A stretch of DNA of 64,000 bases from Nitrosopumilus sp. (GTDB lineage Archaea; Thermoproteota; Nitrososphaeria; Nitrososphaerales; Nitrosopumilaceae). The stretch's first letter is position 1. Each line of letters opens with the position of its first letter. The translations under genes were made by a program, and so were the position numbers. Of the stretch, positions 55,518 through 61,883 are shown one piece after another. The stretch is taken from assembly GCA_965218785.1 (NCBI GenBank), contig OZ244650.1:480001-544000 (forward strand), read 5' to 3'. The notes beneath the pieces are model-generated. The model saw nothing but the letters and a program-made list of their open reading frames with translations, was not told where the DNA came from and searched no databases.

Positions 55518-56153
55518 TCACTCGATTTTGCTGATCATGTCTTTGAATTGACCCAATCTGCTGCTTACTTCATCGACTCCTGCAAGAATAACCTGTTCCG
55601 GACTGAGAGCACCTGTTGATTCCACGGTGAGAACCCTTTCGTTTTTCTTGTCTGTTTCAGTAAGTGTTGCTATGTTTGCAGAATTCCATTTGGCATGCTG
55701 TGTCCCACGTCCAAGTTTTGCGTAACACTCTACCTTGACTCTCTGACCTGGAGCCAATTCAACTAGTGCGATTTTATCTGAGGTCGGTCTTATCGAGTCG
55801 TCCTCGGAGGATAATTCATCTGAAAAAACGACTCTTGTTTCATCTGATTCCCCAGAATCCAAAACCAGCATGACTTTGCAGTTTGAACAGCCTGCCTGGC
55901 TTTGGCATTCACATTTGACTGGCTCGTTAAATCTGACCAGATCCGTTTTTAATGGAATCAATCCCAGTCTGTGTGCCAGTCCCTCATCAGGCACTACTGA
56001 AGAATTTTCTATAACATCTACCGTATCGATTGCAAAAACCGGCACGCCGTTTAGACATATGCGTCTAAGTGCGTTTGCATACTGTAAGGGAACATTTTTC
56101 AGCTTTATGGACATTTTCTGATTATCCTTACTAATTACTTCTAAAGATGACAA
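55518..56153 (-). CDS. rpoD: RNA polymerase subunit D (Rpo3)
   Basis: ANALRR, NSSV..DE.LAHRLGLIPL, HAKW; start TTG 56153 or ATG 56180. Confidence 0.96.
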   Translation of the reverse strand: MSSLEVISKDNQKMSIKLKNVPLQYANALRRICLNGVPVFAIDTVDVIENSSVVPDEGLAHRLGLIPLKTDLVRFNEPVKCECQSQAGCSNCKVMLVLDSGESDETRVVFSDELSSEDDSIRPTSDKIALVELAPGQRVKVECYAKLGRGTQHAKWNSANIATLTETDKKNERVLTVESTGALSPEQVILAGVDEVSSRLGQFKDMISKIE

Positions 56154-56189
56154 ATCTTGAACAAAATCCTCAATGTCCACATAAAAATC

Positions 56190-56408
56190 TAGCTAGTTTA
56201 CTGCATCTGGAATGGAACCTACCAACAATTTGGCAGAGCGCATGCCAAGACCTGTGGTAATTGTAAGAAAGGTGCGCAACGATCTGATGACTGCCGGTGG
56301 AATGAAGATGTCTGGGATACTGATGACGTGTATTCTGATATGGTGCAGAAGAGGGCTAAATATGACAGAAAAACTGCTTGAGATACTAGGGTCGACTTGA
56401 CCTGTTAC
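56190..56408 (+). mobile_element. IS66-family transposase 3' remnant with probable right end (...CCTGTTAC)
   Basis: EPTNNLAER..R..V..RK...G....LMT....W.RRGLN is the IS66 TnpC C-terminal signature; TTAC at 56405-56408 just after the stop. Confidence 0.8.
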
Positions 56409-56868
56409 CTTTGGAGTTGGGTCAATTAACCATAAACCCTATTATTTAATTTTCATCCAATTCATCTACAATTCCATGGTCTAGCTTAGATTTAGTAGTA
56501 TTACTAATTCTTGTACCAGAATGTAGTAAATAAGAAGAAACATCTTCCTTACATCCATACAATGCTTTTATTCGTTTTTTTGTTCCTCATCCATTGTTAA
56601 TTATCTCCAATATCTCATCCTTTTATCACATTAAAATCAGCCTCAAAAAAGAGTATAATTGTAAGTACAATAGGAATAAAATATAGCCAAAGGCAGGCAT
56701 GCCTAATCTCTACATTGGAAACAAACCTTGGAATAAACATGCTTGAAGAAACAACAAACAAAGTTATCTCAATTTTGCGTTCCAGTAAACTTTCAGACAA
56801 TGCTCATACCTGAAGCATGTTAAATTAATTTTGAAGGTATCAAAGTTAATTTTTTGCCTTGTTTTGTA

Positions 56869-57657
56869 TTATTCAAATCTATTAATCCATCTTTGAATGA
56901 TCTCCCTTGATTCCTCTGGTAATTCTCCTTTAACTATTACTGGAAATTCAAATCTTTTTTGTAATTCCAACACTTGATTCTCTTGTCCAAAAGGATAGAT
57001 TTGCTGTTTAAATTGCCATAACAACCCCCCCTCTTTTTGAATTATATCCCGGTGAATCTCTTGCCATCTGCATGCAAATATTGGGTATATTCCCAACATT
57101 TTACACATTTCTAATTTTGTAACAATTTCTGATTTTGGTGTTTGACTTAGCATATTTTTTATTTCTACCCCTACTGTAATTTTTTTTATTTTATGTTCTG
57201 CAATAATATCTAACGTATGTCTAGTTCTGAACCACTCTTTTCCCCTATGTGATCTAACTTGTTTCTCTTTTAGTATCTCAAACCCATTTGCGCGTAATTC
57301 ATTTTTAACAAGATAATGAAGGTGCTCTCCTACCATCTTAGATGTCTTAACATCCGAATATCTGGAAATCCAATATCCCATATTTTCTATTTTTTTTACC
57401 ATGTTTTTTTCAATAAATTTGATTGGTAGTTTGGATGGAAAATAGAATTTTGCAGTGCCTACATCCCTAATATCATATTTTAGTGATTGAAGAATTCTTG
57501 ATTCCTCCAAATTATTTAACGCGTTTTTTACCTGACTTGCCGAATATCTTGTTTCTAGCATTATCTGTATGGTTGATTCATGTCTTGGTGTTTTTTTTGG
57601 ACGGTTTGAACTATCAAAAAAAAGTTCGATTATCCTTTTTTTTAACTCAACATCCAT
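56869..57657 (-). CDS. wHTH + PD-(D/E)xK (restriction-endonuclease-like) nuclease
   Basis: GEHLH..V...L...GF helix, LDII, VEIKN catalytic motifs; N-terminal SASQVKNALNNLEE..IL...AKFY wHTH-like; start ATG 57657 or 57696. Confidence 0.75.
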   Translation of the reverse strand: MDVELKKRIIELFFDSSNRPKKTPRHESTIQIMLETRYSASQVKNALNNLEESRILQSLKYDIRDVGTAKFYFPSKLPIKFIEKNMVKKIENMGYWISRYSDVKTSKMVGEHLHYLVKNELRANGFEILKEKQVRSHRGKEWFRTRHTLDIIAEHKIKKITVGVEIKNMLSQTPKSEIVTKLEMCKMLGIYPIFACRWQEIHRDIIQKEGGLLWQFKQQIYPFGQENQVLELQKRFEFPVIVKGELPEESREIIQRWINRFE

Positions 57658-57772
57658 GCTTTTTTTGCGTAAAACATGAATTTGTATTTTACGCATTTTA
57701 ATTGCTTATTTTATGCCTATTTTTCTAATTATTTAAATGAGCCAGATTCTATAATTCTGCTTAGATATTATA

Positions 57773-57889
57773 GTCAAGATCTTACAATGCTAATCCATGA
57801 TTAATTTAGCACATAACTTTTGTCAAATTTTATAATGTAAGTATTATATTTGCTAAAATATGCTAAAAATAGCACCATAAGATCTTGAC
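57773..57889. promoter_or_regulatory. Symmetric divergent promoter/operator: 44-bp imperfect inverted repeat with two TGCTA-N14-TAGCA boxes around a central TTTTATAAT
   Basis: GTCAAGATCTTA (57773-57784) / TAAGATCTTGAC (57878-57889) perfect; TGCTA-N14-TAGCA at 57788-57811 and 57851-57874. Confidence 0.7.
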
Positions 57890-59800
57890 ATGACAGAAAA
57901 AACAACTGTGGATATCACACCTGATAAAAGCCTAATTCAGAAACTAGGCCTTACTGGATACAGAACTGCAGAAGCTATCTCTGAATTATTGGATAATTCA
58001 ATAGATGCAAGAATTTCAGGCCAAACTCAACGAATAGATGTCGTTTTAGATTATAGCAGAAAAGTCATATCGATATCTGACGGTGGTCTTGGAATGAATC
58101 TTGAAGAATTAAAAAATGGATTAACCATAGCGAAAGGTACAAAATTTGAAAAAGGGAAACTAGGTAAATTTGGATTGGGAATGAAAAGTGCCTGTTCTAC
58201 TTTGGGAAAGGAATTTACAATTACCACATCAAAACCTGATTCGAATTTGGAATTTTTTATACATTATGATGAGAAAAAATGGCTTGATGATTCATCAAGT
58301 ACTTGGCAAAATTTTGAAATTGAAACCAGTAAAAAAACACGTCCAGGGCATGGTACAACAATTAGAATTAGAAAACTAAATGTCCCATTATACCCAAATC
58401 AGTCATCTACATTAAGAAAAAATTTTGGAATACGATATGAACCATACATAAAATCTAATCAAATTTCTTTGTATATTAATTCAAGAGAATGTAAAGCACT
58501 AGAAATTTTAATCCAACCCGAAAGTAAACAGGAATTAGAGATAGAACTAGAGAATAATAATTATCTGAGAGGGTATATAGGATTGTTAGAGAAACGTTCC
58601 ATAAGAGGTGATTATGGAATTCATTTATACAAAAATGATAGGTTAATCAAGGCTTTTGACAAATTTGGCATACGTAGTCATCCTGAAGTTGCTAAAATAA
58701 TGGGTGAACTTCATCTTGATCATGTCCCAGTTAATTTCCATAAAACTGGTTTTATAGAGGAATCTTTAGAATACAGAGAAGCATTACATGTATTCAAAAC
58801 AGATCCTAAAGTTGTTAAGGCATTACGTAGTTCAATCAGTAAGGCCCCCCCTGCAACCTCTATCCAATCAGTCTTAAATTATTTTGTTAATGACAAAACA
58901 AAAGGAAAAATAAAAACCAGAATGAGCAATACCAACTCCAAAATTTTACTCAGCAAGGCAGATTCTTATGATATTCAATATGGGACAAAAAAAATTGAAT
59001 TTGATTTTGAAAATGGGAATGATGGTGAATTATATCGTATTGAAAGAATGCCTAATGGAGCAAAAATCAAAATCAACAGAAAAAGCCCAATTTTTACGAT
59101 AATTGGCAATCCCCTGTTCCTTATAGGCATGATAGAATTGGAGGTTAAAACCATAATAGATGATCCTGTAAAATACCGGGATTTTTTGAGAGAAAGAAAC
59201 GCCAATTGGAATAAATTCGTACAGGATTGGTCTGAAAAACAAGAAAAAATAACGAAAAAAAAGTCTCCTAAAGTAATTCCATTACTTAATTATTCACTAG
59301 TTGATGATTTGGGTGAACTACATGCATTTTTGAAGGAGACATTTGAATTTAATTTTCAATTTACGGCCCTTAGTACACTTGCACCATATTTACAAAATGC
59401 ATACAACAAAATGATCTATAATGTGGAGACTGTTAGAAACACCGGTCAGAATCTATATGATTTGTTAATTGATTATGGCGGTATGGAATTTACTGTTCTT
59501 CTAAATCCCAAAACTGAGGATATACAAAAAGCATTAGAATATTCTGAAAAAAAGAAGTTTATTGTAATTAGAGAATACTCTAACGTATCCAAAGATACGT
59601 GGGCTCCACCAGATAAAGCATGGTTGGATTTATTTGGAGAAATGAAACGTGGTTCATATTATATCAGGAGTGATGAATTGACAAATATTCTTGATAATTT
59701 ATTAGAAAAGCGTCTTACAAATCAAAATAGATTGGAAACTATAGCCAGACATAAAAATATGATAAATGAATTAAAGGTGTATTTGGGGAATACTGGATAA
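57890..59800 (+). CDS. MORC-type GHKL ATPase + S5 domain fused to a putative AbiEi-like antitoxin C-terminal domain
   Basis: AISELLDNSIDA, ISDGGLGM, GKFGLGMKSA, GTTIRI; GIHLYKNDRLI, GELHLD..PV..HKTGF; C-terminal FTALSTL...APPDKAWLDL...DEL..IL...LETIAR. Confidence 0.8.
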   Translation: MTEKTTVDITPDKSLIQKLGLTGYRTAEAISELLDNSIDARISGQTQRIDVVLDYSRKVISISDGGLGMNLEELKNGLTIAKGTKFEKGKLGKFGLGMKSACSTLGKEFTITTSKPDSNLEFFIHYDEKKWLDDSSSTWQNFEIETSKKTRPGHGTTIRIRKLNVPLYPNQSSTLRKNFGIRYEPYIKSNQISLYINSRECKALEILIQPESKQELEIELENNNYLRGYIGLLEKRSIRGDYGIHLYKNDRLIKAFDKFGIRSHPEVAKIMGELHLDHVPVNFHKTGFIEESLEYREALHVFKTDPKVVKALRSSISKAPPATSIQSVLNYFVNDKTKGKIKTRMSNTNSKILLSKADSYDIQYGTKKIEFDFENGNDGELYRIERMPNGAKIKINRKSPIFTIIGNPLFLIGMIELEVKTIIDDPVKYRDFLRERNANWNKFVQDWSEKQEKITKKKSPKVIPLLNYSLVDDLGELHAFLKETFEFNFQFTALSTLAPYLQNAYNKMIYNVETVRNTGQNLYDLLIDYGGMEFTVLLNPKTEDIQKALEYSEKKKFIVIREYSNVSKDTWAPPDKAWLDLFGEMKRGSYYIRSDELTNILDNLLEKRLTNQNRLETIARHKNMINELKVYLGNTG

Positions 59801-60921
59801 TGACATATCATTTTTCAACTGAATTAGAAAAAGACAATATAGAAAGAATCGCGAATAAATTTAATTTTGCAAATCCATTATACGTTGAAAAATTCATCAT
59901 GGATTTTGAAATGAATTATCACATTTCTCAAAATATTGATTGTTTGTTACGGGGTGGTATGTGCATGCCGTTTCATTCAGAGTTGAAAGTGAGACGATTA
60001 AGTATAGATATTGATTTGTTAACTGGTTTGGGTGTAGATGAAATACACGAGGCGATGGAAGAACTAGATAATAAATTACCAGATGTAAAAATTATAAAAC
60101 ATGAACCGAGAAATCCATACCCAATTCCCAATCTAGCCTCGTATTATGTTGAGTATGATTCCTGTTTTGGTAAACCTGAAACAGTGAAAATTGATTATTT
60201 GTGTGGTTTTTCATCAAATCTCCCAACACAAACTATTTCCAATGAACAAGAAATTATTGAATTCAAAATTGACTATCCTGCAAAAATTTTAACACGTGGT
60301 GCAATAATTGGGGATAAAATCACTACTCTTGCACTTGAAAAAATTGGTTTACAAAAATCAAAATTCCATGATATACCTAAGCAAATCTATGATATTGCAA
60401 CCTTGTTGAAAGGTGCTACAGAAAATGACATTAGTGAATCTTTGGATGCATTCATAACTCTTACTGGATTCAAAGTTAAAATATTTGGAAATGGGCTTTA
60501 TACGATTGGTGAAATAATTGACAGAATTAATTCTTCAATTCAAGGCTTATTTTCATTTAAATCCACTTTGACTACTACGGATGATTACGAGGGGTTTTTT
60601 GGTTCTTTTACAGGAACCTATCTTAATAGTACACAACGGTATAAAAAAACTCAACACATTTCCGATATTTTATTGGTATGGTTTTATGGAATTATTTTAA
60701 AAAAATTCTTTGAACATTCTATTTCAAAACAAGAAGCGGCTGCAAAAATATTTTCTATGGTTAGATCATATGATGTCATTCTTAATTCAAGTGTTGAAGA
60801 AAAAAAATCTACTAGCGAAGATCTTCTTAATACTATGCCAGAACTTTCATTTAAAAAAAATATTCTTAATGGAGTTCCTGCAGAACAGGTATTTGTTATA
60901 AACGAAATTTTTTCAGATTAA
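59800..60921 (+). CDS. AbiEii/AbiGii-family nucleotidyltransferase toxin
   Basis: VEK....., LLRGG.C, RRLSIDIDL, VKIDY, GDKITTL, KQIYDI; start overlaps upstream stop (TAATG). Confidence 0.85.
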   Translation: MTYHFSTELEKDNIERIANKFNFANPLYVEKFIMDFEMNYHISQNIDCLLRGGMCMPFHSELKVRRLSIDIDLLTGLGVDEIHEAMEELDNKLPDVKIIKHEPRNPYPIPNLASYYVEYDSCFGKPETVKIDYLCGFSSNLPTQTISNEQEIIEFKIDYPAKILTRGAIIGDKITTLALEKIGLQKSKFHDIPKQIYDIATLLKGATENDISESLDAFITLTGFKVKIFGNGLYTIGEIIDRINSSIQGLFSFKSTLTTTDDYEGFFGSFTGTYLNSTQRYKKTQHISDILLVWFYGIILKKFFEHSISKQEAAAKIFSMVRSYDVILNSSVEEKKSTSEDLLNTMPELSFKKNILNGVPAEQVFVINEIFSD

Positions 60922-61196
60922 ACATACCACACAATTTTGATATTTTTTGTATTGGATCTCTTGCGTAATTGAATCAATTTTATCAAATTACACGCATTTC
61001 TTCACAGCAAGATCTCAAAGCTGGGAATAACATACAATCCCATGTACATTGGGTGTTCATGAGTGTCAGTTGTGGGATTATTATCACGATCCTAGAGGAG
61101 GAAGAAAAAAGAGAGTATACTAGCATCCAAACCAGTCAGAAGACCCAGTACCGTTTTGCGTATAGATAAATACCGATATACCGTGACTCCTTTGAG

Positions 61197-61883
61197 ATGG
61201 TCGATGTTACATTGGTAAGATACTCCTTTGAGGGTGAAAAGTTTGAACTCTTGGTAAAGCCTGATCCTGCACTAGATTACAAGCTGGGAAAAAAGAAGGA
61301 AATTTCTGCAGTTTTGGTTTCAGAAGACATCTACACTGATTCAGGAAAGGGCACAAAGCCATCTGCTGAAAAACTGCTCAAGGTCTTTAAAACCGAAGAC
61401 CTGACTGAGATTGCTCAGATAATTATGCAGAAAGGTGATCTGAATCTTACGACTGATCAAAGACGGAAAATGGTTGATGACAAGAAAAAACAGATTGTAG
61501 AGTTCATTGCAAAGACCTACGTAGATCCCAAGACCCATCTACCTCATCCTCCACTGCGAATAGAGAATGCCATGAAGGATGCCAGAATCTCAGTCGAACC
61601 ACAAAAGGGTGTAGAGGAACAGGTAAAAGACATCGTTGAAAAACTGCGTTCTATAATCGCATTAAAATCCGAGAACCTCACATTGGAGATTATAATTCCT
61701 GCACAATTTGCCTCCCAGTCCTACTCTGTTCTCAAATCCGTAGGATCCCTCAAAAACGAAGAGTGGCAAAACAACGGTTCCCTAAAAGCAATACTTGAAA
61801 TACCTGCTGCGGCAAGACCAAACGTGATAGACAGATTGGGTTCTATAACCAAGGGTTCTGCTTTAGTTGAGGTAATGAAATGA
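61197..61883 (+). CDS. Ribosome maturation protein SBDS/SDO1
   Basis: FELLVKP, DIYTD...G, DPKT.LPHPP.RIE; upstream of the exosome genes. Confidence 0.95.
   Translation: MVDVTLVRYSFEGEKFELLVKPDPALDYKLGKKKEISAVLVSEDIYTDSGKGTKPSAEKLLKVFKTEDLTEIAQIIMQKGDLNLTTDQRRKMVDDKKKQIVEFIAKTYVDPKTHLPHPPLRIENAMKDARISVEPQKGVEEQVKDIVEKLRSIIALKSENLTLEIIIPAQFASQSYSVLKSVGSLKNEEWQNNGSLKAILEIPAAARPNVIDRLGSITKGSALVEVMK

Follow-up and report, generated by a model that had tools for sequence, protein, structure and literature searches.

AbiE and MenAT are among the most widespread toxin–antitoxin and abortive-infection modules, and how their toxins are released from the phosphorylation lock is an open question. The AbiEi–AbiEii class acts in abortive infection and was placed in type IV before its recent reclassification as type VII toxin–antitoxin. 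As set out in parts of a recent preprint, the antitoxin AbiEi's C-terminal domain binds across the active-site face of the toxin AbiEii, its loop D85-E86-I87 reaches into the nucleotide pocket, and this binding prompts the toxin to phosphorylate itself at T65, which abolishes its activity; AbiEi is described there as binding no nucleotide, and its winged helix–turn–helix (wHTH) as making few toxin contacts (bioRxiv 10.64898/2026.01.19.700257). MenA3 likewise induces auto-phosphorylation of MenT3, according to portions of PMC11375011, the acceptor being named as S78 in a passage of the same preprint (bioRxiv 10.64898/2026.01.19.700257). Here we consider a locus of a Nitrosopumilus-like archaeon, contained in a 64,000-nucleotide stretch of contig OZ244650.1 (hereafter the window), in which a predicted AbiEi-type domain is fused to a MORC-like ATPase instead of a wHTH and is followed directly by an AbiEii-type toxin gene. 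On balance we lean towards reading positions 57890-60921 as a translationally coupled two-gene module of the AbiE/MenAT kind (DUF1814 toxin, type VII toxin–antitoxin), where type VII membership, that is, antitoxin-dependent modification of the toxin, rests on homology to AbiE/MenAT3. Its parts are as follows (pLDDT, predicted local distance difference test).

57890..59800, plus strand: fusion-protein gene P0001, 636 amino acids (aa), predicted MORC-like GHKL ATPase, middle domain, linker and AbiEi-type C-terminal domain
57890..58384, plus strand: predicted GHKL (Bergerat-fold) ATPase domain, residues ~1-165, including the strongly conserved N-terminal 25 residues
58385..58849, plus strand: predicted S5-fold transducer domain, residues ~166-320, with the invariant K285
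58850..59236, plus strand: middle domain, residues ~321-449, modelled as four strands then two long helices, pLDDT 64-91
59237..59299, plus strand: Lys-rich linker, residues ~450-470, predicted disordered
59300..59797, plus strand: predicted AbiEi-type (Pfam DUF6577) antitoxin domain, residues ~471-636, assigned from sequence, fold, conservation and free-standing relatives
59800..60921, plus strand: toxin gene P0002, predicted 373-aa AbiEii/MenT-type (DUF1814) nucleotidyltransferase

The locus resembles the described systems in its parts and departs from them in how these are joined. As in AbiEi–AbiEii of S. agalactiae and L. lactis, the antitoxin gene comes first, the genes overlap (the P0002 start overlaps the P0001 stop, TAATG), the toxin belongs to AbiEii/DUF1814 with its RxS/TxDxD motif, and the predicted antitoxin domain is of AbiEi type by fold (6y8q_A) and by family (PADLOC); unlike in those systems, ~450 residues of MORC-like ATPase and middle domain take the place of the wHTH, the host is an archaeon, the phospho-acceptor is Ser rather than Thr, and the sequence is too distant for a PDB-entry match. 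With MenA3–MenT3 (TakA–TglT) of M. tuberculosis, the locus shares a DUF1814 toxin, the RxSxDxD serine as phospho-acceptor and an AbiEi-family antitoxin, which in that pair induces auto-phosphorylation (as portions of PMC11375011 have it), and the TglT and MenT4 folds occur among the weaker matches of its C-terminal domain model; MenA3, in contrast, is a wHTH-bearing antitoxin lacking an ATPase, and a profile of the window toxin family detected no sequence match among solved MenT chains.

On the ATPase side, prokaryotic MORC and paraMORC proteins likewise join GHKL to S5, keep all nucleotide-binding motifs, are sporadic and mobile in distribution and have a proposed role in conflicts, but theirs are neighborhoods of restriction-modification-type helicases, nucleases and methylases (as laid out in parts of PMC2292703; Iyer, Abhiman and Aravind 2008), whereas for the window family the one conserved neighbor is the AbiEii toxin. 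When the neighboring open reading frames (ORFs) of 51 loci were clustered, the toxin alone recurred, with neither a third conserved gene nor a restriction-modification-type neighborhood for the fused gene; the words “toxin” and “nucleotidyltransferase” are absent from the main text of PMC2292703. Defence GHL ATPases (Tiamat, Hsp90-like) share an N-terminal GHKL domain, a variable middle, an exchangeable effector and the logic that closure controls the effector, and a common switch with exchangeable outputs is discussed for them (in portions of bioRxiv 10.64898/2026.09.30.754977); unlike in those systems, the effector at this locus would be a toxin encoded apart and restrained by way of the fused antitoxin domain. 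None of the PADLOC matches listed for P0001 at E ≤ 1 was to a Tiamat model, and “AbiE” and “nucleotidyltransferase” do not occur in the text of that preprint. Our searches, which left supplements outside (that of PMC2292703 lists all MORC architectures and might include the present one), returned no literature in which a GHKL or MORC ATPase is linked to AbiEi or AbiEii, nor any that mentions DUF6577; a part of PMC3632139 describes the wHTH form. The ATPase-fused AbiEi variant is real, conserved, undescribed in the literature searched and specific to a little-studied archaeal lineage, and its mechanism is a proposal.

First, the identity of the C-terminal domain carries this comparison. A first-pass annotation made from the sequence had proposed by eye that 59280-59800, corresponding to residues ~464-636 of P0001, encodes an AbiEi-like domain grafted onto a GHKL ATPase where the wHTH would normally be, and the strings it quoted are found in place in the ORFs 57890-59800 and 59800-60921; in P0001 these are KQEKITKKKSPK at residues 450-461, then FQFTALSTLAPY..., IVIREY... 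and WAPPDKAWLDL. Two independent sequence models agree with the by-eye call. Pfam DUF6577 aligns residues 472-634 of the whole protein to its model positions 37-200 of 204 (E 8.8e-6, 26.0 bits) and scores E 5.8e-7 and 29.9 bits, above its cut-off of 27.8, on the C-terminal 182 aa alone, while residues 473-634 align with positions 75-236 of the 240 in PDLC02235, PADLOC's model for AbiEi (E 6.9e-6). Among the 52 homologous C-terminal domains, DUF6577 is matched by 30 at E ≤ 0.1, the best at 6.1e-10. The fold evidence agrees with both models: a model of the domain computed from the 52 sequences (pLDDT 89.0; predicted template modelling score, pTM, 0.85) was compared by an exhaustive structural aligner with 48,161 representative chains and found as its top match 6y8q_A, the S. 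agalactiae AbiEi antitoxin, over 123 residues within chain positions 57-195, the C-terminal domain of that protein (Z 9.0, root-mean-square deviation 3.4). It is the sole chain at Z ≥ 8, and Rv2827c (1zel_B) ranks sixth at Z 5.8. On its own, this fold evidence is supportive and not decisive.

Two conserved motifs mark the domain. The first, FQFTxLSTLxPxLxN at residues 489-503, hardly varies, covers strand, helix and loop of the model and falls roughly at the toxin-engaging loop of AbiEi (D85-E86-I87), by secondary-structure register only; A-x-P-[ED]-K-A-W-x-D-L falls, in approximate register, at the acidic contact residues 150-155 of AbiEi. By sequence and modelled fold, residues ~471-636 are thus read as an AbiEi-type antitoxin domain, and we hold this identity, together with the pairing of antitoxin and toxin, to be very probable. 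The structural matches that follow AbiEi are nucleotidyltransferases, among them the toxins MenT1, TglT and MenT4 together with ANT(2'') and LnuA (Z 4.9-7.2; MenT1 7.2, ANT(2'') 6.4). Judging from the model, the AbiEi-type antitoxin domain may share ancestry with its own toxin, as a nucleotidyltransferase-like fold that has degenerated.

Second, the product of the downstream gene appears from its sequence to be an ordinary AbiEii/DUF1814 member, a predicted nucleotidyltransferase whose active site and phospho-acceptor S68 are intact. P0002 matches Pfam AbiEii (PF08843) at E 1.8e-9 with 38.3 bits against a cut-off of 22.5, and PADLOC AbiEii at E 1.4e-16; as a toxin of this family it would be expected to stop growth by adding nucleotides to tRNA 3′ ends. 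It bears the GG, RxS/TxDxD, conserved Lys and K..YD catalytic motifs. Nine residues (G52, G53, R66, S68, D70, D72, K173, K194 and D198) are invariant in all 37 toxin homologues, which share 19-94% identity, and the active site and the RxSxDxD serine are under selection. The serine in question lies in RRLSIDID at residues 65-72, where the first-pass annotation had already found it retained; its designation as the phospho-acceptor position S68 follows the AbiEi and MenA3 papers.

Third, the remainder of P0001 departs from the canonical AbiEi form. Its N-terminus is predicted to be a MORC-type GHKL ATPase with intact catalytic residues, in keeping with the GHKL assignment made at first pass: HATPase_c_3 is matched at residues 24-127 (E 2.6e-19; Pfam), Morc6_S5 at residues 218-293 (E 6.1e-5), the best sequence relatives in the PDB are MORC4 (profile E 4.8e-17), MORC3 and MORC2, and Foldseek aligns the full-length model (pLDDT 80.3, pTM 0.48) with Hsp90/TRAP1, MORC4, SMCHD1 and MORC2 at E ~1e-14 over 380-600 columns. 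All 59 family members match HATPase_c_3 and 52 of them Morc6_S5 at E ≤ 0.01; E32, N36, D39, D64, G68, G92, G95, G155 and K285 are invariant throughout, and most of the first 25 residues are conserved. The middle domain is confidently modelled but unassigned: it has no Pfam match, and a protein-atlas search with it was uninformative. In the linker, pLDDT falls below 50 at residues 450-464, and the AbiEi-type domain is therefore predicted to be flexibly tethered to what precedes it by this Lys-rich, disordered segment. Elsewhere the databases add little: NCBIfam yielded only sub-threshold N-terminal GHKL matches for P0001; MzaB (over the N-terminal 100 residues) and AbiEi were the only PADLOC models to match at E ≤ 1; PHROGs returned unnamed families for the ATPase and no match for the toxin; and in viral contigs no full-length relative of P0001 was found, the 23 loci that matched doing so through the N-terminal GHKL domain only and at no more than 36% identity.

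What DUF6577 is, and what P0001 lacks, becomes apparent from the relatives of the C-terminal domain. A whole-library search with its 182 residues returned 51 proteins at E ≤ 0.001, many of them fused (~620-676 aa) and others of 228-278 aa; ten of the short ones were scanned, of which six match DUF6577 at E ≤ 0.01 (five above the cut-off) and one carries a TrmB-type wHTH above its cut-off. Across 301 genomes of the phylum, PF20217 occurs in seven, two of them with fused forms and five, from other families, with free-standing proteins mostly of ~275 aa. The fused-domain profile matches all seven free-standing loci from other families of the phylum (42.7-84.9 bits); among the seven proteins, AbiEi_4, a wHTH, is present in four at E ≤ 0.01 (two above the 25-bit cut-off), one matches other HTH families only, all below cut-off, and in two no HTH family was found. 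The single free-standing protein compared with PADLOC matches AbiEi over its full length at E 7e-30. In four of these seven loci the next gene matches the window toxin-family profile, and both of the downstream genes scanned match Pfam AbiEii. Because free-standing, wHTH-bearing forms precede AbiEii, we read DUF6577 as the part that confers antitoxicity in a subfamily of AbiEi, one that normally consists of wHTH plus DUF6577 and is followed by AbiEii.

Set beside these AbiEi_4-wHTH plus DUF6577 antitoxins of other Thermoproteota, P0001 has a homologous C-terminal domain and the same toxin family directly downstream, as in those four of seven loci; unlike P0001, they are ~275 aa long and headed by a wHTH. 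P0001 itself matches no Pfam HTH family at E ≤ 1 and its N-terminal 320 residues are GHKL plus S5, so that it is a domain-level relative rather than a canonical AbiEi, one in which a MORC-like GHKL ATPase stands in place of the wHTH of the free-standing relatives, as the first reading of the locus had it. In a quick midpoint-rooted tree, 51 of 52 fused domains lie apart from the 18 free-standing ones (SH-aLRT, the Shimodaira–Hasegawa-like approximate likelihood ratio test, 90), and one long-branch fused row (L052) falls among the free-standing domains; a single origin of the fusion is compatible with this tree, not proven by it.

The distribution of the pair across genomes bears on whether its members depend on one another. 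More than 120 full-length P0001 homologues were found, at 43-100% identity, and their genomic context was followed at 79 loci, of which 52 have the C-terminal domain, two are cut by contig ends and 25 encode the ATPase only. By their titles, 50 of the 52 fused loci come from Nitrosopumilaceae, Cenarchaeum, Thaumarchaeota or Nitrososphaerota, the remaining two being a Dehalococcoidia metagenome-assembled genome (MAG) and an uncultured archaeon. In 35 of the 52 the gene immediately downstream encodes a full-length toxin, usually with an overlap of 1-8 nt; in eight the toxin is fragmentary or interrupted by ~1.4-1.9 kb of inserted DNA, and nine have no toxin. In an even sample of 201 Nitrosopumilaceae genomes, where domain and toxin coordinates were paired by hand, the fused domain occurs in 23 genomes from eight of 27 genera, with up to six matches per genome, and the toxin in 22; every full-length domain match lies within an open frame of 619-700 aa, that is, fused. 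Intact fused frames number 37, of which 21 have an intact toxin directly downstream, five a broken one and 11 none. Conversely, 21 of the 22 intact toxins directly follow an intact fused gene and the other starts 109 nt from a contig end, so that none of the 22 is an orphan. Toxin-less fused genes (16 of 37) without orphan toxins make up the decay pattern that a toxin–antitoxin relationship predicts. The pair is conserved, patchy and accessory in Nitrosopumilaceae.

Several individual loci deserve mention alongside these counts. Another complete pair exists in the genome from which the window comes (G000:C1:1096353-1099396, locus L081), with 43% and 37% identity for the two proteins and a 4-nt overlap. 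The Dehalococcoidia MAG (L011, 3986-7042) likewise has a complete pair, at 46-47% and 36% identity, the sole bacterial full-length case among the 79 loci, which could be a lateral transfer or a binning error. An insertion of ~1.4-1.9 kb splits the toxin gene in L012 (5832-8547) and L026 (5899-8420) and the C-terminal domain in G071:C2:877008-880120, which suggests that a mobile element repeatedly disrupts such modules. Downstream of one toxin-less fused gene (L021, 6500-8845) lies a gene for a 781-aa AAA_13/SMC_N-type ATPase, a neighbor that hints at a defence-island setting.

How might such a fusion work? Extrapolating from AbiEi/AbiEii and MenA3/MenT3, residues ~471-636 would dock across the active-site face of the toxin and occlude it, and docking would, by homology, induce auto-phosphorylation of toxin S68 and so keep the toxin off. 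Our analysis makes neutralisation through the C-terminal domain likely, on the indirect evidence of the decay asymmetry and of a weakly supportive co-fold. The first-pass annotation had MenA3 neutralise MenT3 through phosphorylation; this calls for correction, as MenA3 and AbiEi are, by parts of PMC11375011 and bioRxiv 10.64898/2026.01.19.700257, no kinases but inducers of auto-phosphorylation by the toxin itself, and the ATPase therefore need not supply the phosphate. It could instead serve as a switch or sensor through ATP-driven dimerisation, as in other GHKL clamps, and decide whether the tethered antitoxin domain holds the toxin, in which case the module would act as an abortive-infection-type defence of Nitrosopumilaceae. 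We offer such ATP-gated or sensor control of the toxin tentatively, as a proposal that falls somewhat short of being probable; that the ATPase would be more than a passive replacement of the wHTH is suggested because its catalytic residues are fully conserved, the tether is flexible and the closest relatives are GHKL-only. A co-fold of the C-terminal domain with the toxin scored 0.37, as against 0.00 for the best of three controls, its runs agreeing in at least 91% of contacts with a partner pLDDT of at least 79. It thereby passed a mark that 58 of 80 solved complexes and two of 110 mismatched pairs reach; at scores of 0.60 or below, only seven of those 80 solved complexes passed, along with both mismatches.

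A number of observations weigh against this account. For the domain call, the DUF6577 score of the whole protein (26.0 bits) lies below the Pfam cut-off of 27.8; Z 9.0 is modest, being slightly above the Z 7-8 common for models with no true match; a Foldseek search of the PDB with the domain model returned no match at E ≤ 0.001, its best being 0.056; profiles of the C-terminal domain matched no AbiEi entry among PDB sequences, nor did single-protein searches or profiles of the free-standing relatives or of the toxin match any AbiEi or MenT entry there; and the register of the toxin-engaging loop relative to AbiEi D85-I87 is an estimate from secondary structure alone. For the ATPase, the Morc6_S5 match of P0001 (23.5 bits) is below its cut-off of 26.2. 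For the mechanism, the co-fold with the toxin, of the sort that the first-pass annotation suggested, lends weak support, and as a like complex (9HLO) has been solved, the pass may reflect likeness only; the toxicity, toxin binding, phosphorylation and ATPase activity of the module are predicted, and a sensing role of the ATPase is conjectural. Lastly, fused genes that lack a toxin are no worse than paired ones at retaining the conserved C-terminal residues, with mean deviations at the 22 most conserved columns of 0.75 (16 toxin-less sequences) versus 1.08 (36 paired); the domain may therefore have a role beyond the adjacent toxin, or the losses may be recent.

The ATP-gated reading has a broader form, which draws on the ATPase-only relatives.

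Loci L053, L055-L075, L077-L079: GHKL-only clade, in candidate-phyla bacteria, Acidobacteria and DPANN archaea

These are ATPases of ~548 aa, 37% identical to P0001 over residues 2-318 and lacking the AbiEi domain, and the genes downstream of them vary: six of the 17 scanned encode effector-like domains (two Trypsin_2, one SduA_C, the Shedu nuclease, one SDH_protease, one CLP_protease and one ThsB_TIR), and the other 11 have no family above cut-off. Such neighborhoods are what one shared switch whose outputs can be swapped would give, and the GHKL-only MORC-like clade looks, from sequence, like an undescribed defence family. It is conceivable, with slightly more doubt than attaches to ATP gating as such, that this MORC-like clade is a portable ATP-driven infection switch with interchangeable effectors in archaea and small-genome bacteria. 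The fused type VII antitoxin domain would then be a leash on an AbiEii tRNA-modifying toxin in Nitrosopumilaceae, clamp closure, dependent on ATP and triggered by a viral cue, would free the toxin, and elsewhere the 37%-identical ATPase would have proteases, a Shedu-type nuclease or a TIR protein as its coupled effectors. If true, this would establish a previously undescribed defence family and the first antitoxin domain to serve as the regulated output of an ATPase sensor.

Alternatively, the locus may be a plain addiction module, in which the C-terminal domain neutralises the toxin constitutively and the GHKL part has taken over the housekeeping of the wHTH (dimerisation, DNA binding or autoregulation of the operon) and senses no infection. 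The decay asymmetry and the two-gene structure would fit any toxin–antitoxin pair, MORC-type ATPases are DNA-associated clamps (by the account in parts of PMC2292703), and S. agalactiae AbiE is reported, in a portion of bioRxiv 10.64898/2026.01.19.700257, to give no protection against 32 coliphages. An inverted repeat furthermore lies just upstream of the start codon, the usual place of AbiEi-type operators.

57773..57889, no strand assigned: inverted repeat with arms at 57773-57815 and 57847-57889, immediately upstream of the P0001 start codon

Its 43-nt arms are 72% complementary, the outer 12 nt perfectly so (GTCAAGATCTTA / TAAGATCTTGAC), and its last base adjoins the start codon of the ATPase gene; from its sequence it may form a 5′ hairpin or be a candidate operator, the wHTH having been lost from this system. 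We nonetheless consider a plain addiction module unlikely, since a 450-aa ATPase whose catalytic residues are invariant in 59 sequences would be a costly exchange for a 60-aa wHTH, the pairing of the closest GHKL-only relatives with proteases, a Shedu-type nuclease and a TIR protein looks like that of defence systems, and the distribution is patchy, multi-copy and island-borne.

The persistence of intact toxin-less fused genes that keep their conserved C-terminal residues would suit yet another arrangement, in which the ATPase protein activates the nucleotidyltransferase after a signal and the AbiEi-like domain is a recruiting adaptor, the whole being no toxin–antitoxin pair at all. Effector-like genes do stand beside GHKL-only relatives in which no antitoxin-like domain was detected, and the fold of the AbiEi-type domain resembles the nucleotidyltransferases already named. 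We judge this sensor–effector arrangement improbable: every characterised AbiEi-type domain inhibits a toxin (so far as the relevant parts of bioRxiv 10.64898/2026.01.19.700257 and PMC11375011 go), the finding of 16 fused genes without a toxin, and of no orphan toxin, speaks for an enzyme that does harm when alone, and the serine that would accept the phosphate is invariant.

Protein kinases occur among the GHKL folds, and the GHKL domain could in principle act like the anti-sigma GHKL kinases and phosphorylate toxin S68 as presented by the C-terminal domain, the serine being invariant and the tether one that would let both domains meet. This is very improbable, given an S5 transducer with an invariant lysine, relatives that are MORC, Hsp90 and MutL ATPases and not kinases, and known toxins that phosphorylate themselves under an AbiEi said to bind no nucleotide (bioRxiv 10.64898/2026.01.19.700257, in the parts that treat AbiEi).

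Returning to the preferred reading, of an AbiEi-type domain that neutralises the toxin and may be placed under ATPase control, an antitoxin domain on a predicted catalytically intact ATPase offers a testable answer to the question of toxin release, namely nucleotide-driven control, and ATPase mutants would be an experimental handle that wHTH forms do not provide. The comparison assigns DUF6577 as an antitoxicity domain and extends prokaryotic MORC-like ATPases beyond restriction-modification contexts. The module is moreover present in several copies in ammonia-oxidising archaea, including sponge-associated lineages, organisms of relevance to the marine nitrogen cycle whose antiviral systems are almost unstudied.

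Finally, we turn to the surroundings of the module. The nearest public loci are in Nitrosopumilus MAGs, the site is flanked by genes for ribosomal proteins, RNA-polymerase subunit D and the exosome, and the module sits in a low-GC (guanine plus cytosine) island.

56200..61152, no strand assigned: low-GC island, ~4.95 kb, between the RNA polymerase subunit D gene and the SBDS-like gene
55518-56180, minus strand: RNA polymerase subunit D gene, left flank of the island
61197-61883: SBDS-like gene, right flank of the island
56212-56400, plus strand: 62-aa ORF at the island's left edge, sub-threshold match to an IS66 transposase C-terminus (17.1 bits, cut-off 23.1)
56869-57696, minus strand: 275-aa gene, divergent from the ATPase gene

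The GC fraction of the island is 0.30-0.32 as against 0.41-0.47 in its flanks. In six of nine congener loci the site is empty, window position ~56199-56201 abutting ~61153-61155, and ~56200-61152 is therefore a 4.95-kb insertion; two of the other three (L095 and L096) hold ~500 bp at the site and the third (L098) matches the SBDS side only. The ends of the island showed no target-site duplication. The 62-aa ORF aligns to positions 252-283 of the 284 in an IS66-family transposase profile and may, on that sequence match, be a transposase remnant. The 275-aa gene has no match in Pfam, NCBIfam, PADLOC or PHROGs; by eye it resembles a wHTH followed by a D...E-x-K nuclease-like motif, and a protein atlas gives weak leads to Mrr-type endonucleases (score 0.86-0.87). 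The idea that it is a core third component supplying the lost wHTH was rejected, as the gene occurs in only three of the 79 related loci (L001, L003 and L006). A related fused gene, in locus L009, likewise adjoins a subunit D gene, and the subunit D side may thus be a recurrent insertion spot.

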